From contig CALMWN010000410.1 of assembly GCA_937873555.1 (NCBI GenBank), positions 1 to 45,813 of the forward strand: DNA of 45,813 nucleotides, written 5' to 3'. This DNA comes from an uncultured Clostridia bacterium. GTDB lineage: Bacteria > Bacillota > Clostridia > Acetivibrionales > CALMWN01. Every line of letters starts with the position of its first letter. Within the stretch, counting starts at the first letter, position 1. The translations under genes and the position numbers were made by a program. Positions 1-39,096 of the stretch are shown in pieces. The notes below the pieces were generated by a model. That model worked only from the letters and a program-made list of their open reading frames with translations, did no database searches and had not been told where the DNA came from.

Positions 1-244
1 ACTAATTGACAAGTTTTTAATCTACGGGATAAAGACATATAGGTTTATGTCTCATATATGGATTCATGCTTCTGAAAAGTAATTATCGTCAAATAATCGT
101 AACTTAGTAGTACTTCGTTAAGTACGCAGAGGATGGTAAATCCTATCCCTCTGCTGTGGCTAAATAAGCCACAAGATATACATAGCATATAGTTTTTGAA
201 CAATCTTCTTTCTTACAGAGGAAATACTACTCATCACATATTGC

Positions 245-733
245 TTAAAGGGAAAAAAAGTTCCCAGCATTGAAAGTAGGTGATTTTACTACAGAACTAT
301 TCTCTACAACTTCATACTGATGATTTCCTGAATAGTGGCGTGCAACCTCGACAGAGTGCTTAACGTCTTTGGGGAAACCTGTATCATCAAATATGATAAC
401 ACCATCACCTTTGATAGCATTTTCCGCCATGTACTTTACTCTCTCTTTGTTTAGTTCTTCATGGTTCCACTTGCTGTCAGTAATGAATTGTTGCAGTGCT
501 TGCATGGATGTACCTTCTATAAATTCAGACATCATTCCACAGTTTTTATAAGGTATATCAGTTAATAGTCCTGTAGTATAACGTTCTGCCGACCTCATGG
601 TATCAGAACGCTTGAATATATTTTTAAAATTATTCAAAAACCTTTGTAGCTTTAGCATTGGATATGGCGGAACTTTCTTTAATATTATGTCCATTGTTAT
701 TTGACCCCCTGTACCTATGATACAGGTATTCAA
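245..733 (-). pseudogene. IS701-like DDE transposase, N-terminal fragment only
   Basis: 162-aa ORF with the GVIIFDDTGFPK...ARHYSG pattern typical of the first catalytic Asp region of IS701-type transposases. It stops far short of a full-length enzyme. Confidence 0.5.
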
Positions 734-1174
734 GCCAAAGTTACATGGAAATACAAGCTAACGAAATACTATAGTATTGCTATGTTAAGTATATAGAGGC
801 AGGAAAGGAATCCTCCTCTGTCTGGGTTGTGAAACTCACAAAATATAAAAAGCATTGAGTTTATCGAGTATGCGTTTCCTTTTTTACATTGGTCTGAGGC
901 TTATTGGCATTGGAATTGCAAGGTGGGGTCTTTGGTAAATCAATATTGTAGTATTAATATGGGCAAGACTAACAAACTAGCATATAACGTGTTTTATAAG
1001 TATGTCTATAAAAACGGCATAGTTCAATACTTTTCCGATTATTATATAAGAAAATATACGGATAGATGGGGGATAAGGTCAAACTACTTATATACTTAAT
1101 GTACAAATCGGATGTTATATCAAACAAAATTTACAGCCTTTTATGGTAATGCAATAGGTATAAGATGTTGTCCT

Positions 1175-1203
1175 TTGACATAGTAGAAGAGCTAAGTTAT
1201 GAT
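1175..1203 (+). promoter_or_regulatory. candidate sigma-A promoter for the sugar operon
   Basis: TTGACA (1175-1180), 17-nt spacer, TATGAT (1198-1203), about 105 nt upstream of the first gene. Confidence 0.35.
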
Positions 1204-1308
1204 TTTTACTTTGTTCTTTCTCGAAAGCCAATATTACAGAAGCATATTGTGACTACAAAAGATATAATGCCATTATTAGCTGAACTTTAAAATATGTAGG
1301 AGACAAAG

Positions 1309-2631
1309 GTGATGAATGAAAGAAAAATGCTTAATAGTAATATGGAGGAATATGAAAAAATTTCCGTTATTGGACTTGGCTATGTTGGGCTCCCATTAGC
1401 AGTTGCATTTTCAGAAAAAGTAGAAGTAATTGGTTTCGATATAAATAAAGAAAAAATTGATGCATTTAAAAATGGGCATGACATAACTAAACAAGTTGGT
1501 GACCAAAAACTGGCTAAATCGAGTGTTTTTTTTACAACCGACCCTAGTGAACTCAGGAAGGCTAAATTTCATATTGTAGCGGTTCCGACGCCTATAACTA
1601 AAAATTATACTCCAGATTTGAAGCCCCTTAAATATGCAAGTAAAATAATAGGACAGAATTTAACAAAAGGGTCTATCGTCGTATATGAATCAACAGTTTA
1701 CCCTGGAGTAACTGAAGGAATTTGTGTCCCAATACTACAGGATGAATCAGGATTAAAATGTGGTGTAGACTTTAAGATTGGGTATTCTCCTGAACGTATA
1801 AATCCAGGAGATAAATTGCATACAGTTGATAAAATAAGAAAAATTGTTTCAGGTATCGATAAAGAGTCGCAAGAAATTATTGCAAATGTATACAGGCTAA
1901 TTGTGACAGCCGGAGTGTTTACAACATCATCTATTAAAGTTGCAGAGGTAGCCAAAATAATTGAAAATTGTCAAAGAGATTTGAATATTGCATTTATGAA
2001 TGAGCTATCTATTATTCTCCATAAGTTAGAAATTGATACTAATGAAGTGCTTGATGCAGCTTCCACAAAGTGGAATTTTTTGAGGTTCAGTCCAGGGCTT
2101 GTCGGGGGACACTGTATAAGTGTGGATCCATATTATTTGACATACCATATGCAGGAGATAGGTTATTATCCTCAGCTTATCCTTTCGGGTAGAAATATTA
2201 ATAATAATATGAGCAAATATATAGCCGAGAATACTGTCAAACAACTCATTAAAGCAGGACACCAAATAAATAGTTCGAAGGTATTAATTATGGGTGTAAC
2301 GTTTAAAGAGAATGTCCCAGATATTAGAAATTCAAAGGTAATAGATATTGTGAAAGAACTTTTAGATTATGGAATTGAAACATATGTTACAGATCCTATA
2401 GCGGATCCATATGAAGTAAAGGATGAATATCAATTAGAATTAGTAGACATAAGGGATGTAAGAAATGTTAACGCAGTTATTCTTGCGGTACCACATAATG
2501 AATACAAGCAAATCAGTTTAAATAATTTAAAAGAAATATTTGTGGATGGAGAGCCTGTATTAATTGATGTGAAAGGCATTATGAGCAAAGATGAAGCAAA
2601 AACATTGAATTACACCTATTGGAGGTTATAG
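1309..2631 (+). CDS. nucleotide-sugar 6-dehydrogenase, UDP-GlcNAc/UDP-ManNAc dehydrogenase class (TviB/WbpO/CapL-like)
   Basis: N-terminal Rossmann motif ISVIGLGYVGLPLAVAF. Length (440 aa) and overall pattern match the UDP-glucose/GDP-mannose dehydrogenase family. AGGAG lies 10 nt upstream of the GTG/ATG start. Confidence 0.85.
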   Translation: MMNERKMLNSNMEEYEKISVIGLGYVGLPLAVAFSEKVEVIGFDINKEKIDAFKNGHDITKQVGDQKLAKSSVFFTTDPSELRKAKFHIVAVPTPITKNYTPDLKPLKYASKIIGQNLTKGSIVVYESTVYPGVTEGICVPILQDESGLKCGVDFKIGYSPERINPGDKLHTVDKIRKIVSGIDKESQEIIANVYRLIVTAGVFTTSSIKVAEVAKIIENCQRDLNIAFMNELSIILHKLEIDTNEVLDAASTKWNFLRFSPGLVGGHCISVDPYYLTYHMQEIGYYPQLILSGRNINNNMSKYIAENTVKQLIKAGHQINSSKVLIMGVTFKENVPDIRNSKVIDIVKELLDYGIETYVTDPIADPYEVKDEYQLELVDIRDVRNVNAVILAVPHNEYKQISLNNLKEIFVDGEPVLIDVKGIMSKDEAKTLNYTYWRL

Positions 2632-2632
2632 G

Positions 2633-3613
2633 ATGAATTTTAATGATTTTAATCTTTTAAAGAATAAAAGATTTTTAGTAACGGGTGGAGCTGGATTTAT
2701 TGGATCTAATATTGTAGATGTGCTTATAAAAATGGGCAATATAGTAAGAGTTCTTGATAACTTTTCTACGGGTAAATGGGAAAACATTTATGCTCATCTA
2801 AATAACAATTTGTTTGAGCTTATTGTAGGTGATATTAGAGATATAGAAACATGTAGAAAGGCATGTGAGGGAATAGATTATGTACTTCATCAAGCTGCTT
2901 TAGGAGGGGTTACGCGTTCTATATTATATCCAAAGGAAACAAATGATGTTAATATTACGGGCACAATAAATATGTTCGTTGCTGCAAGAGATCAGGGAAT
3001 AAAAAGATTTGTTTATGCATCATCGTCATCGGTATATGGAGATGAAAAGAATCTAATTAAGGAGGAGAAAAAAACAGGGAAACCGCTATCGCCTTATGCG
3101 GTTTCAAAAAGAGCAAATGAACTATATGCAAAAAATTTTTATGACCTCTATAAGCTTCAGTGTATAGGACTTAGATATTTTAATGTGTTTGGAAAAAGAC
3201 AAAATCCTAATTCTATATATGCTGCTGTAATTCCTACCTTTATAAAAAAGTTAATAGACAATGAATCCCCGATAATAGATGGTGATGGTATGCAGTCAAG
3301 AGACTTTACTTATATTGAGAACGTTATTGAAGCAAATTTAAAGGCTTGCGTTTCAGGAGTTGAATCTTATGGTGAAGTATTTAACATTGCATACGGAGAA
3401 AGAACAAGTATTATTGATTTGTTTAAAAAATTATGTGAGTTAATAGGTAAAGATATTAAACCTACTTTTGGCCCTAGGCGTATTGGGGATATAATGCATA
3501 CAAATGCAGATATTAGTCTTGCTAGAAGGGTACTAGGTTACAATCCCAAATATGATATCAATAAGGGGCTGGAATTAACGACGCAATGGTATAAACATTA
3601 TATTTTGTATTAA
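2633..3613 (+). CDS. NAD-dependent nucleotide-sugar 4-epimerase (TviC/WbpP/CapI-like SDR)
   Basis: Motifs VTGGAGFIGSN, SSSSVYG and YAVSK (extended SDR YxxxK). The start is 2 nt after the upstream stop, with GGAGG upstream. Confidence 0.85.
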   Translation: MNFNDFNLLKNKRFLVTGGAGFIGSNIVDVLIKMGNIVRVLDNFSTGKWENIYAHLNNNLFELIVGDIRDIETCRKACEGIDYVLHQAALGGVTRSILYPKETNDVNITGTINMFVAARDQGIKRFVYASSSSVYGDEKNLIKEEKKTGKPLSPYAVSKRANELYAKNFYDLYKLQCIGLRYFNVFGKRQNPNSIYAAVIPTFIKKLIDNESPIIDGDGMQSRDFTYIENVIEANLKACVSGVESYGEVFNIAYGERTSIIDLFKKLCELIGKDIKPTFGPRRIGDIMHTNADISLARRVLGYNPKYDINKGLELTTQWYKHYILY

Positions 3614-3892
3614 TGAAACTAATCAGTATTCTCAATTCACCAAGGAAATTTGATATAAGAAATTATAATCAGAAGAACAGTAATGGTGTAAGTTGAGAAC
3701 ATTACAGTGCGGGAAAATAGTTGATAGCTTTAATGACAATTGCACCAAGAGAAAGTAATAACAATTTAATTCCCTATTTCTTATTAACATAGATTTATAA
3801 TTGAGGAAGTTATTTTGCAAACATAAGTCATACTTCATTATTAAAAGTGCTTAACTGCATATACTTAGAATGATTTGATAAGGGAGGCTTCT

Positions 3893-4993
3893 ATGAAAAT
3901 TTCAAATGAAACAGCATCATTTTTTAGTAACTATGTCTTGGATTATTACTCTAATAGGAAATTTAATGAAATTGGAAAAGAACCTAATGCCGTGGTTATC
4001 AAGCCTACTTTAAAATGTGTAGCCAATTGTAAACATTGCGAGGGACGATTAAAAGATTTTGAGTCTAAAAACCTTCTGGAGATTAATGAATATATTAGTT
4101 TTTTTAAAGATTTAGTTGACCTTGGATGTAAATATTTATGCATAAGCGGTGGTGAACCATTAATATATAAAGATCTATTAAAACTAGTGGATGTTGCTAC
4201 ACAATTGGGATTAATAGTTTCTATAAATACTAATGGCTGGCTATTAGATAATGAGAAACTTAATTCATTATTAAAAAATGGCGTATTACAAGTTAATCTT
4301 TCTTTAGATTCACCTGACTCAGATATGCATGATTCTCTACGTGGATTATGTGGTTTGTTTAATAAAGTAACAAATTTGTTTTATACGTATAATCAGAAAA
4401 GGGAATATGATTATATTTTAAATATTAGAATGATATTATCAAAATATAGTTATAGAAAGTTACCAGAAATGATTGATTTAGCAATATATTTAAATGCAGA
4501 CATACTTAGTATTGATATGATTGAAAACGATTATAATTGCAAAGAATTTCTGCTAAATGAAGAGGATATATATACTTTTAACAAAGTTGAAAAAGGACGA
4601 ATCTTTAGAAAAATTGAAACAATCCTTAATGATAATAAGTTAAGAAAGGCCGCGCTAGAACAGATTCAGTGTATTTATGATACTAACTTTAACTCAGAAT
4701 CTAATTATGCAAATGGTATATATTGGCCAGATGAAAACATAAAAAATAAATGCACTATACCCTTATCCTTTATGATTTTAGAAGGTGATGGTTCAATTTT
4801 ACCTTGTAATAATGTTGAATATACCAGAAGACCTATAGTTGGCAACCTTAAGCAACAATCTATAAAGCAAATCTGGAACAATGAAAATTGGAATATTTTT
4901 AGAAAGGATAAGGATATATATTGTAGATTTTGCCCTATGAATATGAGTCATTCTATTATCTTAAGAAATAAGAGAGTATATAGGGATATATAA
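3893..4993 (+). CDS. radical SAM enzyme with partial SPASM/twitch-like C-terminus
   Basis: CVANCKHC (CX3CX2C), GGEPL, C-x13-G-x4-C then CRFC near the C-terminus. Start moved to the ATG at 3893 behind AGGGAGG; the ORF track starts at 3875. Confidence 0.8.
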   Translation: MKISNETASFFSNYVLDYYSNRKFNEIGKEPNAVVIKPTLKCVANCKHCEGRLKDFESKNLLEINEYISFFKDLVDLGCKYLCISGGEPLIYKDLLKLVDVATQLGLIVSINTNGWLLDNEKLNSLLKNGVLQVNLSLDSPDSDMHDSLRGLCGLFNKVTNLFYTYNQKREYDYILNIRMILSKYSYRKLPEMIDLAIYLNADILSIDMIENDYNCKEFLLNEEDIYTFNKVEKGRIFRKIETILNDNKLRKAALEQIQCIYDTNFNSESNYANGIYWPDENIKNKCTIPLSFMILEGDGSILPCNNVEYTRRPIVGNLKQQSIKQIWNNENWNIFRKDKDIYCRFCPMNMSHSIILRNKRVYRDI

Positions 4994-5102
4994 TAAGTTG
5001 AAATTTACGGTGAAATATTTACTAGTCATTCAAATTATTGAGATATAAACACATGTTAAATTTTTTCTCGGATTTTTCAGAATAAGGTATGGAGGTAATT
5101 TG

Positions 5103-6209
5103 ATGAATGTATTAATAGGTGTATGTGGAATAGGATTTGGCCATACAACTAGACAAATTGAGGTAGCAAAGGAACTAGTAAAAAGGAACCATCGGGTTAA
5201 GATTTTTACCTTCTCTGATGCTAGAGAACATTTTGTTAAGGAAGGATTTGATGTTTCCGAAGTATGGGTGCCATGGATCTCATTTAAGGGTGATAAATTA
5301 AATTACCGTGATTTAATATTAAAAAATTATAATAGTTTATTTAAAGGGTTATTTTTATACAAAAGAAATTTGCAAAACTTAATAAAAGATAACTTTATAC
5401 CAGATATATGCATTTCAGATTACGAACCAAATGTAGCAAAAATCGCTTACAAATTTAAAAAGCCTTTAATAAATATAGATCAACAAAGTAAATTTTGGCT
5501 ACTTGACTATCCTGAGATAAATGGTTTTTCATCTATTGAGGAGAAAAAACGATTAAACCTTTTTTTCCCCAGATATGATCAAAAAATAATCTCATCATTT
5601 TATAAACTTCCTGATATAAAAATGGAGAATATTACTGTAATTGGGCCAATTATCCGTGGAGATTTAAAGGAGTTAGCCCTTAAAAATGAATTCAAAGAAA
5701 TAGACCAGGTTGTAATTTACTTATCACAATACGGGGCATTTTCCATATCTGACAATTTCGGAGGACTCGTAAAAATTCTTGAAAAGTTTAAAGAAATCAA
5801 TTTTGTAATATATTCTAATTCATTTCACTTAAGTGGAAAATTAGGTGATAATATAATAATAAAGAGAGTAGATCGAAAAGAGTTTATAAAAGATATTTCT
5901 ATGTCAAGAGGAGTAATATCAACTGCGGGATACACACTGATAACAGAGTGTCTCTTTATGAATAAACCCATGTACTTAATCCCTTTACCGACATTTGATC
6001 AGCATTATTGTGCAAAGTTTATTTATGAAAATAGTTTTGGGTATTCCTCAAGTACTTTGGATTGCTCAGAAATTAGAGATTTTTTAGAGAAAATTGATCA
6101 TTACAAAAACAATATAATAATTGGGAAAGGAATTCACGGTAAATTATTTGATATGCCGAATGTTTTAGATAAAATTGTAGAGGTCATTGAGGGATGTAGT
6201 AATGGGTAA
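5103..6209 (+). CDS. glycosyltransferase (GT-B, MJ1255/TIGR00661-like)
   Basis: N-terminus VLIGVCGIGFGHTTRQIEVAKEL resembles the glycine-rich acceptor-domain start of this GT family. GGAGG lies 7 nt upstream of the ATG at 5103. Confidence 0.55.
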   Translation: MNVLIGVCGIGFGHTTRQIEVAKELVKRNHRVKIFTFSDAREHFVKEGFDVSEVWVPWISFKGDKLNYRDLILKNYNSLFKGLFLYKRNLQNLIKDNFIPDICISDYEPNVAKIAYKFKKPLINIDQQSKFWLLDYPEINGFSSIEEKKRLNLFFPRYDQKIISSFYKLPDIKMENITVIGPIIRGDLKELALKNEFKEIDQVVIYLSQYGAFSISDNFGGLVKILEKFKEINFVIYSNSFHLSGKLGDNIIIKRVDRKEFIKDISMSRGVISTAGYTLITECLFMNKPMYLIPLPTFDQHYCAKFIYENSFGYSSSTLDCSEIRDFLEKIDHYKNNIIIGKGIHGKLFDMPNVLDKIVEVIEGCSNG

Positions 6210-7098
6210 GCTTTATATTACAGCTGATGATTTTGGGATTGATTTAGACAGGGACATTGGAATTTGTGTTTTAGCAATTTTTAATGTCATTAATTCAATA
6301 AGTATTATTGTAACTAATGAAGGGAGCTATCAAAGGATTAGAAGACTTATTTCTATTATTAGGAAATGTAATCCTAATATAGAGCTGGGATTACATATAA
6401 ATTTAACTGATCCTCAATTAAGTCTATTTAATTTAACCGAGATATGTAGGAAAGAAAATCATTTATCAGTTTCAAATAGTAAAATATTATTTTATGAAAA
6501 TTCAATTTTAAACAATATAGAATTTTATAAGGTCCGCTCAGAGATAGATAATCAATTAAGAATTTATACTAATATCATTGGCAGGCTTCCCAATCATGTA
6601 GATGGACATAATCACTGTCACATTACAAATGTAGCAATTTTTAGTTATCTTCATGATCTGTGCAGAAAATATAATATACATAGGATAAGAATCCCGAGGG
6701 AAAAATTAAATATAAAAGAATTTTTAAAATATAAAAAGGTATATGATATTGAACTGGATAAAGATTTACTATACTTAATTCGTACAATGAGGGAAAATGC
6801 GTTAAGTGATATATTGCTTTATGAAAGTCTATGCAAAAAGTTAACAAAAGAAAGCAGCTGTTTTTGTGCTTTGTGTAAAGAATATGAATTTTTTGGTACT
6901 ACATATGGACATATAAGAAAAATAAAATATCTTATTGAAAACATTCATACTAGCAGTGGAATACAAGAATTAATGATACACCCTGGTTTCTACTGGCCTC
7001 TTATAAAACATAACACACCTTTTTCAAACTTAGATAGGCAAAGGGAGTTATTTAATATTATTGTCGCAAAAATATATTGGAGATTAAATGTTCTTTAA
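6202..7098 (+). CDS. YdjC/ChbG/HpnK-family carbohydrate N-deacetylase
   Basis: N-terminal LYITADDFG motif and mid-protein DGHNHCH are characteristic of YdjC-like proteins. The start overlaps the stop of the upstream GT gene. Confidence 0.6.
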   Translation: MGKLYITADDFGIDLDRDIGICVLAIFNVINSISIIVTNEGSYQRIRRLISIIRKCNPNIELGLHINLTDPQLSLFNLTEICRKENHLSVSNSKILFYENSILNNIEFYKVRSEIDNQLRIYTNIIGRLPNHVDGHNHCHITNVAIFSYLHDLCRKYNIHRIRIPREKLNIKEFLKYKKVYDIELDKDLLYLIRTMRENALSDILLYESLCKKLTKESSCFCALCKEYEFFGTTYGHIRKIKYLIENIHTSSGIQELMIHPGFYWPLIKHNTPFSNLDRQRELFNIIVAKIYWRLNVL

Positions 7099-7162
7099 TA
7101 GTATAATATAGTTTTACATTTTATTGTATAAACAAAATTCATAATAAAACCATAGAAATGGA

Positions 7163-8536
7163 GTGTTAGAATTGGAATCTGTTGAAAGATTAATTATGGT
7201 TGATCCAATGAATGATTACAGTGAAGAAAGAAAAGAAGAATTTTTAGAATTTTTTAACCTTGATTCTAATTTTATCAAAGCAATTGATAGTAAATATTCT
7301 GTTGAATTAGATAAATATAAATTAGAATTCTTGCATAAATGCTATTTTAATAAAATGAAAAATAAAGATGACATATTTAACAGTTATTGTAATGCATCAG
7401 TGTATTATGCATTACGTCATTTATATGGTAGGCCAGAAAAGTTTAAGAGTGAGCAAAAACTAGTCGAATTTTTAAAAAATAATCTGAAAGAAGGCAGTGA
7501 TATACTAGATTACGGATGTGATGTAGGAGATTTTAGTATCCTGTTTTCACGGTTAGGCTATAATGTAACAGTATGTGATTTAGATACGGCGTTGCTTGAC
7601 TTTGCAGAGTTTAGGTTTATAAAGCGTAAACTCAAAATAAACATAAAGCGTATAAGTAGTAATCTAGAGATACCTGAGTTTAACAAAAAATTTGATTTTA
7701 TATTTTGTAGAAATGTTTTAGAACATACATTAAATCCGTTATCTATATTATACAATAACTATCGATACCTTTCGAAGAATGGATTGTTCTATACATCAAC
7801 CTTAAACCCACAACAAGATACATATGCGGGCGGTAGACATTTAAAAGGAGCACTTCAAGAAGCAAAGTCTATTGAGTACATTAATTTTTACAAAAATAAC
7901 CTAAAAGAAATAGATGACATTAGTGGACTATATCATAAAAAAAAGAAATTATTCGTTTTTGAAGGCATAATTGGATCTGGAAAGACAACATTAATTAATC
8001 AGTTACTAGGCAAAGTAGAAAGTTCATCTAAAATAAACATAAAATCTACGAAGATTTTTTCTAAAGATATGACAAACATAGATTTTGATTTTAGAAGAGG
8101 TAGATACTATACAATTTTTGATGAATTAAAATACATGTTATTTGATGACTCAATAGTTTCATATAATTTTATGGAAAGAAATTATTTGTCAACTTTGGCA
8201 CATACTTATGCAAAAGCTATATTAACAAATGATGATGAAGAGTATAGCGACATGATAAAGTGGTATAAACAAAATATTAATAGTACGGTATATATTCCAG
8301 ATGCTTATATTATTCTAGATATTCCGGTAAATTTAGTCACGGAGCGTCTTACCCAAAGAGGTCAGGCAAATGTATGCAATCCACTATGGAATAATAAAGA
8401 CTATTTAAATATTGTAAAAGACTTCTATTCAAAATTTACTAATGAAAATGAAGTAGATTCAAAAGTATACATAGTTGATGGAACTCAAAAGCAAGATGAA
8501 GTTTTAAAAACAGTAATAAAAATAATTAATGAGTAG
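7163..8536 (+). CDS. fusion protein: class I SAM-dependent methyltransferase + deoxynucleoside-kinase-like P-loop kinase
   Basis: The N-terminal half has ILDYGCDVGDF...VTVCDLD...FCRNVLEH (MTase motifs I, II and post-II). The C-terminal half has FVFEGIIGSGKTTL (P-loop), ERNYLS and DAYIILDIP...ERLTQRG (dNK/NMP-kinase pattern). Start codon uncertain (7163 GTG or 7196 ATG). Confidence 0.7.
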   Translation: MLELESVERLIMVDPMNDYSEERKEEFLEFFNLDSNFIKAIDSKYSVELDKYKLEFLHKCYFNKMKNKDDIFNSYCNASVYYALRHLYGRPEKFKSEQKLVEFLKNNLKEGSDILDYGCDVGDFSILFSRLGYNVTVCDLDTALLDFAEFRFIKRKLKINIKRISSNLEIPEFNKKFDFIFCRNVLEHTLNPLSILYNNYRYLSKNGLFYTSTLNPQQDTYAGGRHLKGALQEAKSIEYINFYKNNLKEIDDISGLYHKKKKLFVFEGIIGSGKTTLINQLLGKVESSSKINIKSTKIFSKDMTNIDFDFRRGRYYTIFDELKYMLFDDSIVSYNFMERNYLSTLAHTYAKAILTNDDEEYSDMIKWYKQNINSTVYIPDAYIILDIPVNLVTERLTQRGQANVCNPLWNNKDYLNIVKDFYSKFTNENEVDSKVYIVDGTQKQDEVLKTVIKIINE

Positions 8537-8601
8537 TGTTGGTCTATTTATATTTATGATAATTTTATACTCCCTTAGCCCCGTGTCTACTAAAGAGTAA
8601 G

Positions 8602-8841
8602 GGAAGAAAATTTACACTGGAACAAAAGGCTCAGATATTGCTTGAACTTCTGAAAGAATACAAGATAATATCTGGGCTCGCCGCTGAGTACGAAATGTTC
8701 CCTAACCAGCTCCAACGCTGGAAGTCGGAAGCTACCCAAAAAATGCATCTCATTTTCATAAAGGACAGCGACGAAGCCGAAAAGCTACAAAAGAAGCACG
8801 AATCCGAGGCTGAGGACTTAACAAAGCAGATAAACAATTAG
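8602..8841 (+). pseudogene. IS3-family OrfA (HTH transposase) remnant lacking its start
   Basis: RKFTLEQKAQILLELL...EYEMFPNQLQRWKSE matches the IS3/IS911 OrfA pattern. There is no start codon at the proper N-terminus and no OrfB follows. Confidence 0.6.
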
Positions 8842-9238
8842 ATGCCTATTTAGGGGGAGAAGAGAGAAAGATTTTGGAGTTTCCGAAGAATCAAAATTGT
8901 ACAGAAAACGTTAGTTGCAGACATTTTAGTATGATTAGCAATATCAAAGAGATATAGCATAATCAAAATAAGTTATTATTTTGAAACTAACAAGTATAGA
9001 TAAGTATAGAAAACTATTTTGAAAAAGTTTCAAAGAATTAATTCTGATGCTTAATATTCTGTATAATGAGTAATTTTTGAACCACCTAGTATTCATCTAT
9101 GTGTATAGGTGTTAAATGTTCATAGCTCATAAAATCTTAGGATAACTAAACGATTTTTTTCTCTGTGAAGAATATAATTTAAATATATTTTACATAATGT
9201 AAAGACACTATAAAAATTAAAGCTTAGAGGTGAAATTA

Positions 9239-10231
9239 ATGCAAAATACAACATTTCTTGTTACAAACAAATGCAATTTGTTCTGTTATCATTGTTTTTC
9301 AAATTCTGGACAAGTAATTGAAAATGAATTATCTTTTGGTGATAAACTGAAAGCAGTAGATGTACTAAAACAACTGGGGACAAAAAGATTAGTGTTTAGT
9401 GGTGGGGAACCTTTGCTTTATGAAAATATATTCAGCCTGATTTCGTATGCAAAATCTAAGGAACTAAAGGTTTCATTGTTAACTAATGCAACAAAGCTTG
9501 ATTACAACAAAATAATAAAGCTTAAGGGACTAGGGATTTCAAGTTTAGCTATAAGTATTTATTCTAGAGATATTTTAAGATATGATGAAAATAACTATTT
9601 GAAATATCTTGTTACAGTTAAAAGCGCTACCAGACTTCTAACTGATGAAAAAGTAAAGTTTAAAATAACTATCCCAGTTACATCGAGAAATTCCGAATTT
9701 GTGATAAATATTATAAAAGAATTTCAAACATTAAATATTACTCCTAAAAAAATAAGATTATTTATTGTTACTCCTGTTGGGAAATGTTGCGAAAATTTAG
9801 AATTAAGTCCGTCCCATTCGATCTGGTTAAATACAATAGCAAAAGTTAAAAGTCAGTGTAAAGAAACTGGTTATGATATATACTACGAAGAAAATTATAC
9901 ATCAAATACTGATATTTATTGTGGATGTCAAATTAAAGAATATTCTTATGCTCATGATAACGATTTTGCAGACCCGCATGTAGATGCAAATGGAGATATA
10001 TATTTATGCGGGTTACTACTTAGAAATAAAAAATATCTTATTGGAAATATAAACGAATGTAACATTATGGAGATTAAAAAAAACATTCACTATCAAGCAG
10101 AATGTGTTAAAAGAGTGGAATCAGGTAAAATTGATGGCGATTTTTGTATGGCATTAAATAGAGAAGTTCCAAATAAAAAATATAAGACAAAATTAGTATG
10201 TCCAATTGTTTACAATTCTAATAGTTTGTAA
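9239..10231 (+). CDS. radical SAM enzyme with SPASM/twitch-like Cys-rich C-terminus
   Basis: CNLFCYHC (CX3CX2C), SGGEPLLY, then CGC...GDIYLCG (G-x4-C) and further Cys residues. Start set at the ATG at 9239 behind AGAGG. Confidence 0.8.
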   Translation: MQNTTFLVTNKCNLFCYHCFSNSGQVIENELSFGDKLKAVDVLKQLGTKRLVFSGGEPLLYENIFSLISYAKSKELKVSLLTNATKLDYNKIIKLKGLGISSLAISIYSRDILRYDENNYLKYLVTVKSATRLLTDEKVKFKITIPVTSRNSEFVINIIKEFQTLNITPKKIRLFIVTPVGKCCENLELSPSHSIWLNTIAKVKSQCKETGYDIYYEENYTSNTDIYCGCQIKEYSYAHDNDFADPHVDANGDIYLCGLLLRNKKYLIGNINECNIMEIKKNIHYQAECVKRVESGKIDGDFCMALNREVPNKKYKTKLVCPIVYNSNSL

Positions 10232-10265
10232 GAATTGGCTAGCTTTTATGTAATAGTCACGGAGA

Positions 10266-11468
10266 CACCTGACTAAAACAAAATAAAACTATGAGATATG
10301 AAGATATTCAAGATTTAGGGGGGCTATATGAACGTTGTTTCTAAAATATTGAACAAATTTGATGAACAAGAAAAATTTAAATTAAATGTATCTATCTTTG
10401 ATTATAGTATAGAGATATTTAGCACAAGTCAAGAAGCTCTAAATTATTTAAAAGAATTATTTTACCCGGATAATACTAATTGCCTATCTCAAAATAAAGT
10501 GTTTTTAGGGAAGAGAGATTTACTTATTAAAAATATAAATATGGATGAAAGTGAACTTAAAGATATAATGCATAATATTATAATAAGTTGGATTTATTTA
10601 GGAATAGTTCATCCAATAAAAACTGCAGAAGTTAAAAAATATATATATAATTCTTGGCAAGCATACATACAGTCCAATAAAGATAAACATTCTAACCCTT
10701 ACATACTTTTCAAAAGAGAAAATGAAATAATTATCATAACGACTAAAGGTTTTAATAATTATAAATTGCTTTCCTGGATAGTACGAGAAATTGCTGGGCG
10801 CAGATTAGAGAATAATGGGTATTCCATTTTTCATGCAGGCGCAGTCAATATAAATGGCAAAGGAGTTGCAATTTTTGGTAATTCTGGTGCAGGAAAAACT
10901 ACTTTAGCTTTAGGTCTATGTAAATATGAAGGTGCAAAATATATTTCTAGCGACAGACTTTATATTAAGAACAACGATATTAATAATTGTTTAGAATCTA
11001 CATCATTTAGTTTTCCTATACGTATAAACTATGGAACTTTATTAACACTTCAAGAAATGAATAATTACGAAAAATGGAATTTGCAAACACCAGTTCCTGG
11101 CGAAGATACTACTTGGAAACAATTTGATGGTAAAGATAAGCTTGAGATTACACCTTATGAGCTCGAACAAAAATTATTATTACAAGTTAGCGCTAAAACA
11201 AACATTGATATTGTAATATTTTTGAATTTATTAACTAACTCAAATATGAACGAGTATATTTATGAGACTAATTCTGAACTTTTAGAGACAAATTGCTGGA
11301 CACCAACTGATCCATCATTCGCATATGATTGGCTGTCACAACGCAATATTTCTGATGAGTTACTTTTACATAGCTCAAAGAAGATCATTAATAGTCTAAT
11401 GAATTTAACAAATATTAAAGTTAAATATTCATTTTTACATTTCAGAGATTTATGTAAAGAAATAGCTA
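10266..11468. repeat. direct repeat copy 1 (1203 bp) containing the kinase-like gene
   Basis: Offset of exactly 2976 bp to 13242..14444. The encoded proteins are identical over 380 aa and the nucleotides matched wherever I spot-checked. Confidence 0.85.
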
Positions 11469-11479
11469 GATTGACCTGA
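10328..11479 (+). CDS. HPr-kinase-fold P-loop protein, copy 1 (last codons replaced by IS sequence)
   Basis: FHAGAVNINGKGVAIFGNSGAGKTTLALGL...SSDRLYI resembles the HPr kinase/phosphorylase C-terminal domain. The native C-terminus is cut 6 codons before the stop by the IS at 11469. Confidence 0.65.
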   Translation: MNVVSKILNKFDEQEKFKLNVSIFDYSIEIFSTSQEALNYLKELFYPDNTNCLSQNKVFLGKRDLLIKNINMDESELKDIMHNIIISWIYLGIVHPIKTAEVKKYIYNSWQAYIQSNKDKHSNPYILFKRENEIIIITTKGFNNYKLLSWIVREIAGRRLENNGYSIFHAGAVNINGKGVAIFGNSGAGKTTLALGLCKYEGAKYISSDRLYIKNNDINNCLESTSFSFPIRINYGTLLTLQEMNNYEKWNLQTPVPGEDTTWKQFDGKDKLEITPYELEQKLLLQVSAKTNIDIVIFLNLLTNSNMNEYIYETNSELLETNCWTPTDPSFAYDWLSQRNISDELLLHSSKKIINSLMNLTNIKVKYSFLHFRDLCKEIARLT

Positions 11480-13054
11480 TAAAAACAGTTTTCATGAAGT
11501 AACATACTTCAGAAGTATAAATTTATTGATCTTTGACACTTGAATATGTGAGAAACCAGGCTCCTTTTGCTCCTTTATGCCATCATCTTGGCTACTTGCC
11601 TTAGATTATGGGCAAGAATACCCAAGCCGGTCCATATTTGCGTTTTCCGATATCTATTCAGCATGCTACAGTTTAATCCGAACCGGCGTTTTAAGCAACT
11701 AATACGGCCTTCGATTCCTGATCGCCATCGTTTTAATCGTCGGAATGTCGGAGTGTTTTCACATATATGGTTCGCTCTTTGGACTTTCTACCAATCTTGG
11801 GTATGCAAACATGCTTAACACCAGCTCCGTATGCTAATTCCTCATTGTCGGAATCTTAATATCCTCGATCAAGTGCCATCTCTGATGGGGCCTGACCGAA
11901 TAAGTCAACATGCTTTTGCAGAGCATCATTCACCAGAATTTTGTCGCATGGATTGCCCTTATACAGTTGGTAGCCTGTTATGATCCCGCCATCTACCTCC
12001 TGTATTTGTAACTTGTATCCGAATTCAACACGCTTCCCAAGCTTACCTTTGACAATGGGGCGGGCGTCAGGATATTTGAAACTGATAAGGCGGTCGGCAA
12101 GTTTTGTATTCCCGGCATTGACGGATTCGCTTTGTTCAATGATCTTACGGACCTTTTTGGCGGTGTCCAGCAAGTTACCACAGATCTTTCGGTCATTCTT
12201 TGTTTCAGGAATCAGCTTCTTTGCCAAACGGTCTGTCTGGATCAAGACTTTCCCGGCTTCTACGGCCATCTGTCCAGTGATTTTCCGAACTTTCGTGCGG
12301 GCATCCTCTGTTCTGCGGCGGAGTACCTTGTTGATGGACAGCAAGTGGTCCTTCATTTTACGAATCGATGTCGTACTTTGTAGGGAAGCCTTTCCACAAG
12401 CTTGTTTTATGCGGGTGACTGCTTTTGTTAGCTTTTTTAAGCCTTCGTAAAGCAGGCCGCATCCGTAGGGTGGACGATATTGGCCTCCACTACCGTTGAA
12501 TCAACCCGAGTCTTACGACCTTTTAGAGGTTTCATCTGCGCCAGGGATTTCAGCAGTTTTTGATTCATCTCTTCGATGACTTCCTCGCCATACTTGGTGG
12601 TAATTTTCATTAAGGCGGTAGGATCCGGTACTTTCTGCACAATTGGGATACGACAGAAAAATCGATACATGAGGTTATGAGTAACTTCGGGGGCAGATCT
12701 TCATAGCTCAGTCCAGTGTAATGCTTGAGAAACATCATGTGGATGTATACACGAGCCGGTACGGATGGGCGTCCACACTGGGTATTAAACCGATCAACGA
12801 TGGGATATTCGTATGATTTGTCCTGTAAATATTTAACAATCTTCTCAAGTTCGGGAGTAAGCCGGTATGTGGCTTCTGATATAAGGAATTGTGCTAGGGT
12901 TGGCTGATTCCAATCTGGATAATCGAGTATCAGCATAGCTATTACCTTTTGTAATTTTTGTATTGTGCTGTATTATTCGACATCTGGAGTTAAAATTTCT
13001 GCCTCAAACTCACTATATTCAAGGTTTTCAAGGATCATTTATCAGGTGAAACTA
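11469..13054 (-). mobile_element. IS5/IS1182-family insertion sequence with a degraded transposase
   Basis: Imperfect terminal inverted repeats (GATTGACCTGATAAA at the left, TTTATCAGGTGAAACTA at the right). Flanked by a 4-bp direct repeat (GCTA or CTAG, register ambiguous). Removing it restores the kinase reading frame. Confidence 0.65.
11560..12936 (-). pseudogene. IS5/IS1182-family DDE transposase, multiple frameshifts
   Basis: Collinear minus-strand ORF pieces (12610..12936, 12437..12670, 11856..12356 and a further out-of-frame tail). They carry CGRPSVPARVYIHMMFLKH (InsH N-terminal type) and DSTVVEANIVHPTDA. Confidence 0.7.
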
Positions 13055-13096
13055 GCTAGTATTGCCAGAAGTTTATAAATTAATTTGTTACGATAT

Positions 13097-13130
13097 AAAA
13101 AAGCGTTTTTTCACTTCTGAGAAAAAACGC
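13097..13130 (-). terminator. orphan rho-independent terminator-like hairpin
   Basis: 10-bp perfect stem GCGTTTTTTC/GAAAAAACGC with an 8-nt loop. An A6 run on the plus side gives a U-tract on the minus strand. No minus-strand gene feeds into it. Confidence 0.35.
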
Positions 13131-13241
13131 AAGAAGGCAAATTGAGTGTGAAAAAACTTGTTTTTTACATCGCCTGAATGGCTGAAATGTAAGGTTGAAA
13201 AATGGACTAACGTTCAAACTGGTATATAATTGGGGTCAGGT

Positions 13242-14444
13242 CACCTGACTAAAACAAAATAAAACTATGAGATATGAAGATATTCAAGATTTAGGGGGGC
13301 TATATGAACGTTGTTTCTAAAATATTGAACAAATTTGATGAACAAGAAAAATTTAAATTAAATGTATCTATCTTTGATTATAGTATAGAGATATTTAGCA
13401 CAAGTCAAGAAGCTCTAAATTATTTAAAAGAATTATTTTACCCGGATAATACTAATTGCCTATCTCAAAATAAAGTGTTTTTAGGGAAGAGAGATTTACT
13501 TATTAAAAATATAAATATGGATGAAAGTGAACTTAAAGATATAATGCATAATATTATAATAAGTTGGATTTATTTAGGAATAGTTCATCCAATAAAAACT
13601 GCAGAAGTTAAAAAATATATATATAATTCTTGGCAAGCATACATACAGTCCAATAAAGATAAACATTCTAACCCTTACATACTTTTCAAAAGAGAAAATG
13701 AAATAATTATCATAACGACTAAAGGTTTTAATAATTATAAATTGCTTTCCTGGATAGTACGAGAAATTGCTGGGCGCAGATTAGAGAATAATGGGTATTC
13801 CATTTTTCATGCAGGCGCAGTCAATATAAATGGCAAAGGAGTTGCAATTTTTGGTAATTCTGGTGCAGGAAAAACTACTTTAGCTTTAGGTCTATGTAAA
13901 TATGAAGGTGCAAAATATATTTCTAGCGACAGACTTTATATTAAGAACAACGATATTAATAATTGTTTAGAATCTACATCATTTAGTTTTCCTATACGTA
14001 TAAACTATGGAACTTTATTAACACTTCAAGAAATGAATAATTACGAAAAATGGAATTTGCAAACACCAGTTCCTGGCGAAGATACTACTTGGAAACAATT
14101 TGATGGTAAAGATAAGCTTGAGATTACACCTTATGAGCTCGAACAAAAATTATTATTACAAGTTAGCGCTAAAACAAACATTGATATTGTAATATTTTTG
14201 AATTTATTAACTAACTCAAATATGAACGAGTATATTTATGAGACTAATTCTGAACTTTTAGAGACAAATTGCTGGACACCAACTGATCCATCATTCGCAT
14301 ATGATTGGCTGTCACAACGCAATATTTCTGATGAGTTACTTTTACATAGCTCAAAGAAGATCATTAATAGTCTAATGAATTTAACAAATATTAAAGTTAA
14401 ATATTCATTTTTACATTTCAGAGATTTATGTAAAGAAATAGCTA
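13242..14444. repeat. direct repeat copy 2 (1203 bp)
   Basis: See copy 1. Identity ends at the position equivalent to the IS insertion point in copy 1. Confidence 0.85.
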
Positions 14445-14464
14445 ACATTACCAGAAGTTTATAA
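13304..14464 (+). CDS. HPr-kinase-fold P-loop protein, copy 2 (intact)
   Basis: 386 aa, identical to copy 1 up to ...CKEIA, then the native end NITRSL. AGGGGGG lies 5 nt upstream of the ATG. Confidence 0.7.
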   Translation: MNVVSKILNKFDEQEKFKLNVSIFDYSIEIFSTSQEALNYLKELFYPDNTNCLSQNKVFLGKRDLLIKNINMDESELKDIMHNIIISWIYLGIVHPIKTAEVKKYIYNSWQAYIQSNKDKHSNPYILFKRENEIIIITTKGFNNYKLLSWIVREIAGRRLENNGYSIFHAGAVNINGKGVAIFGNSGAGKTTLALGLCKYEGAKYISSDRLYIKNNDINNCLESTSFSFPIRINYGTLLTLQEMNNYEKWNLQTPVPGEDTTWKQFDGKDKLEITPYELEQKLLLQVSAKTNIDIVIFLNLLTNSNMNEYIYETNSELLETNCWTPTDPSFAYDWLSQRNISDELLLHSSKKIINSLMNLTNIKVKYSFLHFRDLCKEIANITRSL

Positions 14465-14638
14465 ATTAAATTTGTTACTTTCCATTAGCCCTCTATCATA
14501 CTATTTTTGTGAAATGCTTATGCAGACTAATTAGGCATTTATCTTTAAAAGCAATTTTGTGAATCAATGTGCGGATATTTTATAATGACCCCAGAAAACA
14601 AGACAGACAAAGCAGCCCAAATAAGTTAGAATGTAATT

Positions 14639-14722
14639 ATGGATAAGAGAAGAAACTTTACACCCGAACAAAAAGCAAAAATCGTTATGGAAGTCTTACG
14701 GGAAGAAAGAACACTGAATTGA
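14639..14722 (+). pseudogene. IS3-family OrfA remnant (first 27 codons only)
   Basis: MDKRRNFTPEQKAKIVMEVLREERTLN followed by a stop, the N-terminal HTH of IS3/IS911-type OrfA. Confidence 0.55.
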
Positions 14723-14909
14723 TGAACCGGACAAACAATGGAAACCAAAAACGCATGCAGCAAGCAAAATTTCCTCAACACAAGAGCATGGAAGAATTTA
14801 ATTTCAACTATCAGCCAAGTATCAACCGCCAAACCATATATAACCTGGGTGCCTGCGAGTTCATCCGGAAGAATGAGAATATAGCCTTTATTGGTCCGAC
14901 CGGTACCGG
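14719..14909 (+). pseudogene. istB: IS21-family IstB helper ATPase, 5' fragment (5'-truncated, then interrupted in the Walker A motif)
   Basis: AKFPQHKSMEEFNFNYQPSINRQ...IAFIGPTGTG matches IstB up to the first half of the P-loop. Continuation is at 18427. Confidence 0.75.
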
Positions 14910-14925
14910 ATATGACAACATTTTA

Positions 14926-14992
14926 GTTATGTAAAGATTTTGCCGAGAATGCCAGTAATAATAGGAGCTTTTAGCAAAAAACTTTACATAAC
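14926..14992. repeat. left subterminal 67-bp palindromic module of the RIT element
   Basis: Bounded by GTTATGTAAAG (14926-14936) and CTTTACATAAC (14982-14992). Confidence 0.75.
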
Positions 14993-15068
14993 AGTTTAAT
15001 ATAAATATAGTTCAAGATAAATTTGATACATACTCCTTTTATCATATAAAATAAAGGAGTGTTGTCAA

Positions 15069-16304: not shown

Positions 16305-16309
16305 GAGTT

Positions 16310-18305: not shown

Positions 18306-18315
18306 CTCGTTTATA

Positions 18316-18382
18316 GTTATGTAAAGTTTTTTGCTGGAGGTACTTGATATTATCAGTACTTTCAGCGAAATCTTTACATAAC
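18316..18382. repeat. right subterminal 67-bp palindromic module of the RIT element
   Basis: GTTATGTAAAG (18316-18326) and CTTTACATAAC (18372-18382), the same span as the left module. Confidence 0.75.
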
Positions 18383-18402
18383 CAAATACTTGTCATATCC
18401 GG

Positions 18403-18426
18403 CCTTATGTAAAGATTCACATAAGG
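18403..18426. repeat. 24-nt hairpin between two CCGG copies just outside the RIT right end
   Basis: CCTTATGTAAAGATTCACATAAGG has 8-bp arms and contains the TTATGTAAAGATT core also present in the RIT ends. It is flanked by CCGG at 18399-18402 and 18427-18430. Confidence 0.7.
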
Positions 18427-20175: not shown

Positions 20176-20271
20176 GCTGTTAGTAGAAATTTACAAAGTC
20201 AAGTAGGTATAATGTAATAAAAGTGGTTTAGATTAAGTATACAGTTTAAATACATGGAGGCTTTAAGTAGT

Positions 20272-27578: not shown

Positions 27579-27586
27579 GGATAAAT

Positions 27587-28077: not shown

Positions 28078-28135
28078 AGAATTTTTATCAAAAAGTATTT
28101 GCTTATAAAGTAGGTATGGAAGGTGTCTATTTATT

Positions 28136-39023: not shown

Positions 39024-39096
39024 TCCGACATGATTCGTAGCCCGAGGGAAAATACTTATTATATAGATAATAATCGAATAGTTTTATTTTGTTGCA

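Follow-up and report, generated by a model that had tools for sequence, protein, structure and literature searches.

Contig CALMWN010000410.1 (assembly GCA_937873555.1) of an uncultured Clostridia bacterium was analysed over positions 1 to 45,813, and this whole stretch of 45,813 nucleotides is referred to below as the window. Close to its left end, at positions 1309-8536, lies a cassette of six co-directional genes built around a radical S-adenosylmethionine (SAM) enzyme, which we consider here as the core of a probable pathway for a small-molecule glycoside. The original prediction, made from the letters of this DNA, had described six genes on one strand, several of them abutting or overlapping, and this layout was borne out: an open reading frame (ORF) check found all six on the + strand at the positions given, each intact. 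Gene identities were assigned by Pfam and NCBIfam profile searches, with scores judged against the curated cutoffs. The first gene (1309-2631, +) encodes a TviB/WbpO-like UDP-N-acetylhexosamine 6-dehydrogenase with all three UDPG_MGDP_dh Pfam domains. Its top NCBIfam model is TviB (NF011729; 453.4 bits, under the equivalog cutoff of 592), it passes the nucleotide-sugar dehydrogenase subfamily TIGR03026 (392.6 against a cutoff of 189.8 bits), and its orthologues in related cassettes are 48-51% identical. The second gene (2633-3613, +) encodes a TviC/WbpP-like UDP-sugar 4-epimerase of the short-chain dehydrogenase/reductase (SDR) family (Pfam Epimerase E 2.7e-58, 197.6 against 20.9) that contains the YxxxK motif and has TviC (NF011728) as its top NCBIfam model at 300.6 bits, under the equivalog cutoff of 760. 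Then follow the radical SAM enzyme with a four-cysteine, twitch-type C-terminus (3893-4993, alternative start 3875, +; Pfam Radical_SAM and SPASM) and a GT-B glycosyltransferase (GT) of the Glyco_trans_1_3 or MJ1255/VC2487 type, which is MurG-like (5100-6209, +; PF13528, 156 against 25 bits). On the MJ1255/VC2487 subfamily model TIGR00661 the GT scores 129.7 bits, under the cutoff of 195.9, and MurG provides its only NCBIfam matches outside its own family. A sequence search of the PDB gave no match for it, and its single-sequence AlphaFold model (pLDDT 35.7) was too poor for a fold comparison. The fifth product is a YdjC-family carbohydrate de-N-acetylase (6187-7098, probable start 6202, +; Pfam YdjC, 104.3 against 29.7 bits; the gene call on metagenome contig L001 is 298 aa), scoring 53.0 bits on HpnK (TIGR03473) and 52.8 on ChbG (NF002559) and reaching neither cutoff (232.6 and 227). 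The sixth gene (7163-8536, +) encodes a fusion of a class I SAM methyltransferase (about residues 85-235; Methyltransf_23 E 1.7e-16) with a P-loop domain resembling nucleoside monophosphate (NMP) and deoxynucleoside kinases (dNK) (about residues 260-455; dNK E 9.5e-6). The latter stays under the cutoffs for dTMP kinase (TIGR00041, 41.7 against 83.25 bits) and dNK (PF01712, 25.9 against 27), finds thymidylate kinase (TMPK) in a PDB search (E ~8e-4) and shows the P-loop GIIGSGKTT and an ERNYLS motif; it is best called kinase-like. In relatives, methyltransferase and kinase are separate genes, or the methyltransferase is joined to the radical SAM enzyme.

The six genes are tightly packed. Dehydrogenase and epimerase genes abut (stop at 2631, start at 2633), those of the GT and the YdjC enzyme overlap, the remaining gaps measure 70-280 nt, and terminator-like sites on the + strand are absent between the six genes. 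A sigma-70-like promoter match (TTGACA-17-TATGAT, 11/12 matches, the best of the region) is located at 1175-1203 on the + strand, about 100 nt upstream of the dehydrogenase gene; it is a consensus match only, and the region contains no more such matches than shuffled sequence. No segment resembling a membrane span was found in any of the six proteins.

The radical SAM enzyme is the signature protein of the cassette. Invariant in 20 family members are the cysteines of the CxxxCxxC motif (C42, C46 and C49) and four further cysteines towards the C-terminus (C287, C305, C344 and C347), arranged as C...C...CxxC, and the twitch domain of BtrN aligns to residues 283-347. The Pfam SPASM model is matched (41.4 against 21.5 bits); the seven-cysteine motif by which a complete SPASM domain ligates two auxiliary [4Fe-4S] clusters is not present, since only four cysteines of the C-terminal part are invariant. 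The C-terminus is thus best described as a twitch type with a single predicted auxiliary cluster and not as a seven-cysteine SPASM domain, and the twitch assignment in the original prediction is right. When the family profile was searched against the PDB, BlsE (7vob) came out on top (E 6e-20) and BtrN next. The AlphaFold2 model (pLDDT 92.6) has BlsE as its best Foldseek match (E 1.8e-14, TM 0.63/0.70), followed by SuiB, CteB, DesII, SkfB, PqqE, anSME, MoaA, viperin and BtrN, the last at rank 27. This is resemblance and not membership: the BlsE family model TIGR04466 gives 50.8 bits with a cutoff of 400, and in the structural alignment the two proteins are about 15% identical. A B12-binding domain as in HpnJ was not detected, Pfam showing only Radical_SAM, SPASM and Fer4_12 in this enzyme and in the second radical SAM enzyme of the window described below. 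The closest mechanistic models of the window enzyme are radical enzymes acting on sugars and nucleosides. BlsE itself, the cytosylglucuronate decarboxylase, acts on cytosylglucuronic acid, which the GT BlsD forms from UDP-glucuronic acid and cytosine (PMC3715490).

An exhaustive hidden Markov model search delimited the true family as four clusters (50% identity) above 400 bits, next to a sister clade of 406 clusters (50% identity) at E <= 1e-30. Members of the sister clade are very often fused to Glyco_trans_1_3, to GT2 (x4), GT1 (x3) or GT4 domains, or to methyltransferases. Because fusions to GTs are so frequent there, the lineage is better regarded as carbohydrate-directed than as a group of peptide maturases. 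We also considered, and rejected, maturation of a ribosomally synthesized peptide: the abutting genes of locus L014 leave no space for a precursor peptide, and the relatives are fused to GTs and not to peptide-recognition domains. Closer to the cassette, GT and radical SAM enzyme are fused in L041 (808 aa), P0328 and P0371, radical SAM enzyme and methyltransferase in P0014 and five other proteins, and methyltransferase and kinase in this window. Gene fusions hence connect four of the six cassette functions, and the GT-radical SAM fusion proteins reinforce the small-molecule logic of GT, deacetylase and radical SAM enzyme that had been proposed for this DNA. Contig L041 (a metagenome contig of 55% GC) carries at 261-4411 the Glyco_trans_1_3-radical SAM/SPASM fusion and, after it, a second radical SAM gene and a gene of the adenosine deaminase family. 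Proteins of up to 2103 aa (P0327, P0338, P0367, P0421 and P0330), in which up to four GT2 or three GT1 domains or methyltransferases are fused, were met in the sister clade; these giant fusions form an uncharacterised class of radical-SAM/glycosyltransferase megaenzymes.

The conserved unit is larger than the six genes, and the limits 1309-8536 set originally are too narrow. A second radical SAM/SPASM enzyme of 333 aa (Pfam Radical_SAM, weak SPASM match) is encoded at 9230-10231 on the + strand. Its product is 38-44% identical over its full length to a radical SAM protein of 325-335 aa in the cassettes of L004-8, L011, L013, L015, L016 and L021, which argues that it belongs to the unit. The loci of relatives further include an amide ligase and, in most cases, a methionyl-tRNA synthetase (MetRS); the original prediction had not linked the MetRS gene of the window (20254-21840) with the cassette. 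In the window this second gene is split from the six by a probable insertion sequence (IS) remnant of the IS3 family (OrfA, 8638-8841, +), weakly supported by its profile match (NCBIfam IS3, E 0.0046, 16 bits) but plausible. On its left, the cassette is bounded in this genome by a truncated IS701-family transposase remnant (245-733, -; DDE_5 E 1.7e-17; IS701 at 102 bits over profile positions 1-109 of 363). Two flanking IS remnants had been proposed; the IS701-like one is confirmed and the IS3-like one retains the weaker standing just given. Metagenome contigs L001 and L002 encode an identical radical SAM protein and are both 100% identical to window positions 1-9057; at position 9057 both contigs break off. 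Further right lies an ORF resembling HprK-related P-loop kinases (10328-11479, +; TIGR04355, 49 bits with a cutoff of 200), which is exactly duplicated at 13304-14464; its membership in the unit is doubtful because no related locus contains a counterpart. In our reading, the window copy is a rearranged form of a larger unit into which IS elements have broken. Horizontal acquisition of the cassette, suggested earlier, leaves no foreign mark in base composition: the GC content at third codon positions (GC3) is 0.18-0.25 for the cassette, and we rejected composition as evidence for transfer since this resembles the MetRS gene of the window (0.27) and its Tn7-like genes (0.21-0.26). Rfam searches of the window and of four related loci at gathering thresholds returned neither riboswitches nor T-boxes, and no tRNA genes were found.

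Related loci, inspected within +/-10 kb around each core, are few and scattered. The radical SAM family comprises about 37 clusters (90% identity) that are 40-51% identical to the window protein, the next match being at 30%. When one genome per species was searched, 13 of 185,579 carried the family: eleven gut metagenome-assembled genomes (MAGs) labelled Bacilli, Mollicutes or Clostridia, Shimazuella soli, and one MAG labelled Rhodospirillaceae. The MAGs CAKMVZ01, CAKOSZ01, CAKOWW01 and JAFQQR01 are among the carriers. Further loci were recovered from metagenomes. Carriers are uncultured Bacilli of the human or animal gut and environmental Clostridia-like bacteria, and S. soli is the only cultured carrier found. 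Conservation of the neighbourhood of radical SAM enzyme, GT and YdjC enzyme, which had been put forward as a check, was confirmed: the same GT accompanies the radical SAM enzyme in every related locus with usable flanks, and YdjC is present in 17 of the 19. This co-occurrence extends across gut MAGs, Shimazuella, L026, L028 and L034-37. A typical gut cassette starts with an AsnB-like ligase, a 333-aa radical SAM enzyme, a 193-aa protein with a HAD motif, the dehydrogenase and the epimerase, and continues with the GT, the twitch radical SAM enzyme (often fused to the methyltransferase), a TMPK-like kinase, YdjC and MetRS. In L014 all ten genes (3566-14235, about 10.7 kb) abut or overlap, those for YdjC and MetRS included. 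A second layout (L010, L012, L017, L018, L021, L034-36 and L043) has a 410-aa protein, termed c7, in place of methyltransferase and kinase, and some of these loci also carry a Peptidase_S51 gene. The S. soli cluster (L003/L009, 3405-21149) combines a core of radical SAM enzyme, GT, YdjC and SDR with APH, two NUDIX proteins, a methyltransferase and a GNAT protein; a divergent set consists of two OMPdecase-like genes, a TMPK gene and a DegT aminotransferase gene, and the cluster is placed directly after a prophage tail/lysis module and before a GmrSD-like gene. Among plasmids, the only homologues found were from Streptomyces (24-25% identity, in a small sugar cluster), those at 25% identity having aminotransferase, GT, oxidoreductase and phosphotransferase genes as neighbours; GT matches in this search were uninformative. 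Neither 50,697 GenBank phage genomes nor IMG/VR contained a member of the family, and IMG/VR gave only generic matches to the radical-SAM core. Literature searches returned no description of the cassette or of a MetRS-linked biosynthetic cluster.

Genes for polysaccharide assembly are missing from this picture. Neither Wzx, Wzy or Wzz nor a priming transferase or a second GT is encoded anywhere in the window, and neither the window nor the ~19 related loci have the composition of a canonical Wzx/Wzy- or ABC-dependent polysaccharide locus. The absence claimed earlier therefore holds within the window and needs one qualification beyond it, as an ABC-2 exporter of two ABC2_membrane_6 permeases and an ATPase is encoded on L001 at 948-3540, about 0.9-3.5 kb left of the window start. 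It lies upstream of the IS701 remnant and is preceded by an unannotated ORF of 275 aa. We considered this exporter as a member of the unit, an assignment that was not supported, given that it is common to no related locus.

Amide bond formation emerges as a recurrent function in the fuller versions. Every fuller cassette variant carries a predicted ATP-dependent carboxylate-amine ligase. The AsnB-like protein begins with MRNVFF... and has no detectable cysteine nucleophile of the kind found in glutamine-hydrolysing enzymes; L028 encodes two ATP-grasp enzymes and a 982-aa adenylation-thiolation (A-T) protein resembling nonribosomal peptide synthetases (NRPS). For c7, 5-6 of 8 members weakly match IucA_IucC and FhuF (best E 1e-4 to 3.5e-4), and its profile weakly matches IucC in the PDB at the HxQN motif (E 0.15). 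In view of these ligases, the mature product of the relatives probably carries an amide-linked substituent. A second set of genes touches nucleotides. A kinase resembling TMPK and dNK occurs in the window, in the gut group and in Shimazuella, where the NUDIX, OMPdecase-like and TMPK genes accompany the cluster; the gene of the adenosine deaminase family is found in L041, and an HD phosphohydrolase gene adjoins the cassette of L020. The original prediction had read the kinase domain as a hint at a nucleoside handle. The kinase resemblance and the scattered nucleotide-related neighbours back a nucleoside acceptor, yet they do so circumstantially. One further candidate was dropped, namely that the c8 protein of the gut cassettes is an NT5C nucleotidase: it has no Pfam or NCBIfam match and no BLAST similarity to the NT5C of L025, and shows a HAD-like DxDGV motif only.

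The most unexpected partner is MetRS, whose gene is adjacent to or within the cassette in 13 of the 18 loci with enough flank. It directly follows YdjC in L007, L010, L012-14, L018 and L034-36 (overlapping YdjC in L014), stands between kinase and YdjC inside the operon in L015, L016, L019 and L039, is convergent with the cassette in L017 and L021, and is located between an ATP-grasp gene and the dehydrogenase gene in L028. The linked MetRS of the gut group is of type 2, with that of Pyrococcus abyssi (1rqg) as best PDB match; the types follow published definitions (PMC8165550). Between L012 and L017 the radical SAM enzymes are 84% and the GTs 77% identical, the MetRS only 49%, so that cassette and MetRS cannot simply have descended together as a single block. 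We consider it likely that cassette and MetRS are functionally linked. In the window, the candidate partner is a MetRS of type 1 (MetRS1; 20254-21840, +; 528 aa, without the C-terminal tRNA_bind domain; best PDB match 4qrd, E 3e-163), which differs in type from the gut-group enzyme. Its nearest homologues are MetRS of Clostridia and other Bacillota (68-74% identity) encoded in a conserved abrB-metS-tatD context; in the window it is flanked by an IS630-like helix-turn-helix gene and ISL3 fragments, with no remnants of abrB or tatD, and it is the sole housekeeping-type gene in 45 kb of mobile elements. Its short length was examined as a sign of paralogy, an idea we rejected because equally short homologues occur in housekeeping abrB-metS-tatD contexts. 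In L025, a gut relative without the cassette, the housekeeping MetRS2 gene is followed at 13914-18086 by genes for a NUDIX protein, a truncated class II aminoacyl-tRNA synthetase (aaRS)-like protein (378 aa), a Peptidase_S51 and an APH protein. They echo the accessory types of the cassette and suggest that the flank of metG takes up variable cargo in that lineage.

Taken together, we favour, with fair though clearly incomplete confidence, the view that these six genes form the centre of a rare specialised pathway, self-contained and cytoplasmic, which makes a small-molecule glycoside and not a polymer. The predicted product would be an amino-uronic glycoside that has lost its N-acetyl group, has undergone radical modification, carries methyl or phosphate and is possibly nucleoside-like. 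Dehydrogenase and epimerase very probably perform the TviB and TviC reactions, to judge by their families, and would turn UDP-GlcNAc into UDP-GlcNAcA and UDP-GalNAcA. The MurG-like GT might then move the sugar onto a small soluble acceptor. A nucleobase, nucleoside or nucleotide is our leading guess for it, and an acceptor of nucleoside type seems a serious possibility that falls somewhat short of being probable. By its family assignment, the YdjC enzyme would strip the N-acetyl group and expose the 2-amine, and the twitch radical SAM enzyme, by analogy with BlsE, BtrN and DesII, could abstract a hydrogen from the sugar ring and in this way oxidise, dehydrate or decarboxylate the uronic residue. 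Methyltransferase and P-loop kinase may finally methylate and phosphorylate the product, and in the complete versions amide ligation would add a substituent. The MetRS would most likely serve as a target or immunity copy, by analogy with aaRS genes in other antibiotic clusters; alternatively it may supply activated methionine to acylate the freed amine, in the logic of mycothiol or streptothricin. A more specific version, which we regard as unlikely, is that the product is an amide-bearing amino-uronic (peptidyl-)nucleoside that mimics methionyl-adenylate or the 3' end of Met-tRNA and inhibits MetRS, the linked synthetase acting in immunity or target titration. If this were true, such an inhibitor would represent a selective pressure that could explain the second, inhibitor-insensitive MetRS of some Gram-positive pathogens. 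We know of no earlier natural-product family aimed at MetRS, a drug target that is currently served only by synthetic compounds such as REP8839 and CRS3123. The coupling to MetRS suggests either a naturally made inhibitor of this enzyme or an aaRS put to new use in the tailoring of glycosides. If the small-molecule assignment is right, the loci represent an uncharacterised family of clusters around a carbohydrate-acting twitch radical SAM enzyme that is repeatedly fused or adjacent to GTs. Irrespective of MetRS, the GT-fused radical SAM clade is a sizeable set of sugar-modifying radical enzymes of uncharacterised chemistry. The pathway is testable, as the supply of UDP-GalNAcA is predictable and GT, YdjC and radical SAM enzyme are soluble.

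Several observations weigh against this small-molecule reading or against parts of it. Product, acceptor and activity, and the role of MetRS as well, are predictions from sequence. An amide ligase is not encoded in the window, and the window copy may be incomplete. The dehydrogenase is not universal: Shimazuella lacks it, and L026 and L028 have one of another type. The uronic acid is therefore not a constant of the family. The nucleotide-related neighbours are each confined to one lineage, the kinase reaches none of the curated cutoffs, and enzymes with an NMP-kinase fold phosphorylate compounds other than nucleotides as well. With respect to MetRS, all linked enzymes keep the Anticodon_3/Anticodon_1 domains and the HIGH and KMSKS-type motifs, so that none has the appearance of an MshC-like paralogue. 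Examined for substitutions of the resistance type, the window enzyme shows seven deviations at conserved positions against a median of two; two housekeeping homologues have six to seven, and thus it does not seem to be a clear outlier. The gut MetRS2 family is very large (5,649 matches at E < 1e-60), copies 63-67% identical to the linked enzymes occur in housekeeping contexts of cassette-free relatives, and the gut-group MetRS2 looks like an ordinary housekeeping enzyme. This fits a role in immunity poorly, and the flank of metG may instead be a hot spot for insertion. Finally, the cassette of L026 contains three extra GT2 genes and MsbA-type ABC exporters (four ABC half-transporters), the nearest approach to a glycan locus that we observed, with no priming transferase or Wzx/Wzy, and radical SAM enzymes of the sister clade are fused to multiple GT2, GT1 and GT4 domains typical of glycan builders. 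These features suggest that parts of the wider family may make oligo- or polysaccharides.

The same two observations would fit a cassette that decorates an existing envelope glycoconjugate, an explanation that we regard as improbable. Here the acceptor of the GT would be a membrane lipid or lipid-linked precursor supplied by genes elsewhere in the genome (lipid II, a diacylglycerol glycolipid or an intermediate of teichoic acid). The GalNAcA attached to it would next lose its acetyl group, undergo radical modification and receive a methyl or phosphate cap, and the cassette could do without a flippase or polymerase of its own. The MurG matches of the GT and the ABC-2 exporter upstream on L001 speak for it, and the pairing of methyltransferase and kinase recalls the WbdD-type chain terminators of ABC-dependent O-antigens. 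However, the kinase is P-loop and TMPK-like and does not have the protein-kinase fold of WbdD, the exporter is not shared with related loci, none of the cassette proteins is embedded in the membrane, and YdjC enzymes are cytoplasmic and act on small sugars. Decoration would also give no reason for the presence of amide ligases, of an NRPS-like A-T protein and of an adenosine deaminase, or for the linkage to MetRS. A related and still weaker proposal is that the six genes were left behind when IS elements truncated a canonical locus for a capsule, an S-layer glycan or teichuronic acid. They are flanked by IS remnants, and TviB- and TviC-like enzymes are classic capsule enzymes; but the core recurs as a tight, stand-alone operon in ~19 loci of several lineages, free of flippase (Wzx), polymerase (Wzy), chain-length regulator (Wzz) and priming transferase, and its recurring partners are radical SAM enzymes, amide ligases, kinase, methyltransferase and MetRS. 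The original prediction had named the finding of the core inside such a locus in relatives as evidence against itself; this was not seen in the ~19 loci checked, which contradict a truncated polysaccharide fragment. We consider the fragment extremely improbable.

The MetRS linkage itself would be explained if the cassette hypermodified a nucleoside of tRNA or another RNA, for example by placing an amino-sugar on the wobble base of a CAU anticodon and thereby affecting recognition by MetRS. Co-transcription of a housekeeping MetRS with the cassette would then make sense, in L014 the ten abutting or overlapping genes run from the AsnB-like PP-loop enzyme to the essential MetRS gene in last place, the neighbours in gut MAGs are housekeeping genes (rpoBC, LysRS), and the conserved gut cassette has no exporter. 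A freed amine together with a PP-loop ATPase parallels the chemistry of lysidine and agmatidine. Nevertheless, no cassette protein contains a THUMP, PUA, TRAM or S4 RNA-binding domain, the surroundings contain no tRNA gene, carriers are very unevenly scattered, and L028, L026 and Shimazuella (with APH, GNAT and NUDIX genes) resemble secondary-metabolite clusters; we count this as quite improbable. Even less credit goes to a function against phages or in making toxic nucleotides, with viperin-like radical SAM enzymes and a nucleotide kinase as the producers of chain-terminating nucleotide analogues. Both radical SAM proteins of the window do match the PADLOC models of prokaryotic viperins (pVip) at 63-79 bits, viperin is among the Foldseek matches, the cassette has a TMPK-like kinase, the window has the character of a mobile-element island and includes a PLD/DrmC-like gene, and in Shimazuella a prophage lysis module and a GmrSD-like gene adjoin the locus. 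On the NCBIfam viperin model (NF038283, cutoff 180), however, the twitch enzyme scores 53.7 and the 333-aa enzyme 66.3 bits, far under the cutoff, and the viperin matches therefore reflect the generic radical-SAM core, to which the pVip matches are confined. Viperins are without a twitch domain, GT, YdjC and UDP-sugar enzymes are foreign to known pVip systems, and the phage collections mentioned above are free of the family, so that a defence function appears very improbable.

The remainder of the window is dominated by mobile elements. The duplicated HprK-like ORF is part of an exact direct duplication of 1203 bp (10266-11468 and 13242-14444, with ORFs of 383 and 386 aa), whose copies bracket ISNCY/IS5-like transposase fragments at 11856-12356 and 12610-12936; the duplication may be IS-mediated or an assembly artefact. 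A mobile element of the recombinase-trio type occupies 15069-18947, with three tyrosine-recombinase genes in tandem (411, 330 and 351 aa) and, after them, a fragment of IstB, the IS21 helper. A Tn7-like module covers 24972-33364 and encodes a fusion of TnsA-N, rve and Mu transposase domains (886 aa), a TniB/TnsC-like AAA protein and TniQ (476 aa), with genes for a second TniQ (311 aa) and an IS66 transposase upstream. The PLD-family protein (35906-37456, -; 516 aa) has weak matches to DrmC/DpdK nucleases, and its gene adjoins an integrase gene (34600-35604). The run of small - strand ORFs at 37610-45771, in which an NrdG-type activase of anaerobic ribonucleotide reductase (41833-42489) is the only NCBIfam match, looks prophage-like or otherwise mobile.

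Compared with known systems, the proposed small-molecule pathway comes close to several precedents. The supply of the sugar nucleotide is very probably that of the Vi antigen and of O-antigens (TviB-TviC, WbpO-WbpP), as the first two genes encode the same enzyme pair; dehydrogenase and epimerase of the window stay under the equivalog cutoffs, however, and TviD/E, VexA-E and Wzx/Wzy are absent. The early steps of blasticidin S, mildiomycin and arginomycin biosynthesis (BlsD/MilC, BlsE/MilG) likewise run from a UDP-uronic acid via a GT and a small acceptor to a radical SAM enzyme, and BlsE is the nearest solved relative of the window enzyme by profile and by fold. Blasticidin-type pathways also form amide bonds in later steps (PMC3715490), as the ligases of the relatives may do. 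In contrast to these, the window pathway has an additional YdjC deacetylase and is predicted to use a 2-acetamido uronic acid as donor, a CMP hydrolase and an aminotransferase are missing, and the hosts are low-GC Bacillota and not Streptomyces. In hopanoid modification by HpnI, HpnK and HpnJ a GT adds an N-acetylhexosamine, the YdjC-family enzyme HpnK deacetylates it and a radical SAM enzyme rearranges the amino sugar, and HpnK is one of only two NCBIfam models matched by the window YdjC. HpnI is a GT2 enzyme and HpnJ a B12-binding radical SAM enzyme, whereas the window encodes a GT-B, MurG-like GT and a twitch radical SAM enzyme without a B12 domain, and no hopanoid genes. BtrM, BtrD and BtrN of butirosin and neomycin biosynthesis follow the same order, with a GT that adds GlcNAc, a deacetylase that frees the amine and a twitch radical SAM enzyme that oxidises the carbohydrate. 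The window differs in having no 2-deoxy-scyllo-inosose synthase or aminotransferase and in its deacetylase, which is of the YdjC family; BtrD belongs to another deacetylase family.

For the MetRS, two kinds of precedent can be named. In mycothiol (MshA/MshB/MshC) and streptothricin biosynthesis a GT is followed by a de-N-acetylase, and a gene of an aaRS family or amide ligases reside in the same cluster; L028 similarly joins the core with the A-T protein, two ATP-grasp ligases and MetRS. MshC is a paralogue of CysRS and specialised; in contrast, the linked MetRS are intact, those of the gut group are housekeeping-like, and thiol chemistry is not implied. Antibiotic clusters with a resistant synthetase also carry an aaRS gene in or next to the small-molecule cluster, examples being albomycin with SerRS, mupirocin with IleRS, indolmycin with TrpRS, borrelidin with ThrRS and agrocin 84 with LeuRS. 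To our knowledge no natural-product cluster has been described with MetRS as its immunity gene, and literature searches on MetRS yielded nothing that ties it to such antibiotic clusters. Albomycin biosynthesis furthermore combines a twitch radical SAM enzyme, a methyltransferase and a nucleoside scaffold. Thus, the logic of the chemistry has precedents in HpnI/K/J, BtrM/D/N, BlsD/E and MshA/B/C, and the new elements are the coupling to MetRS and the clade of GT-fused radical SAM enzymes.

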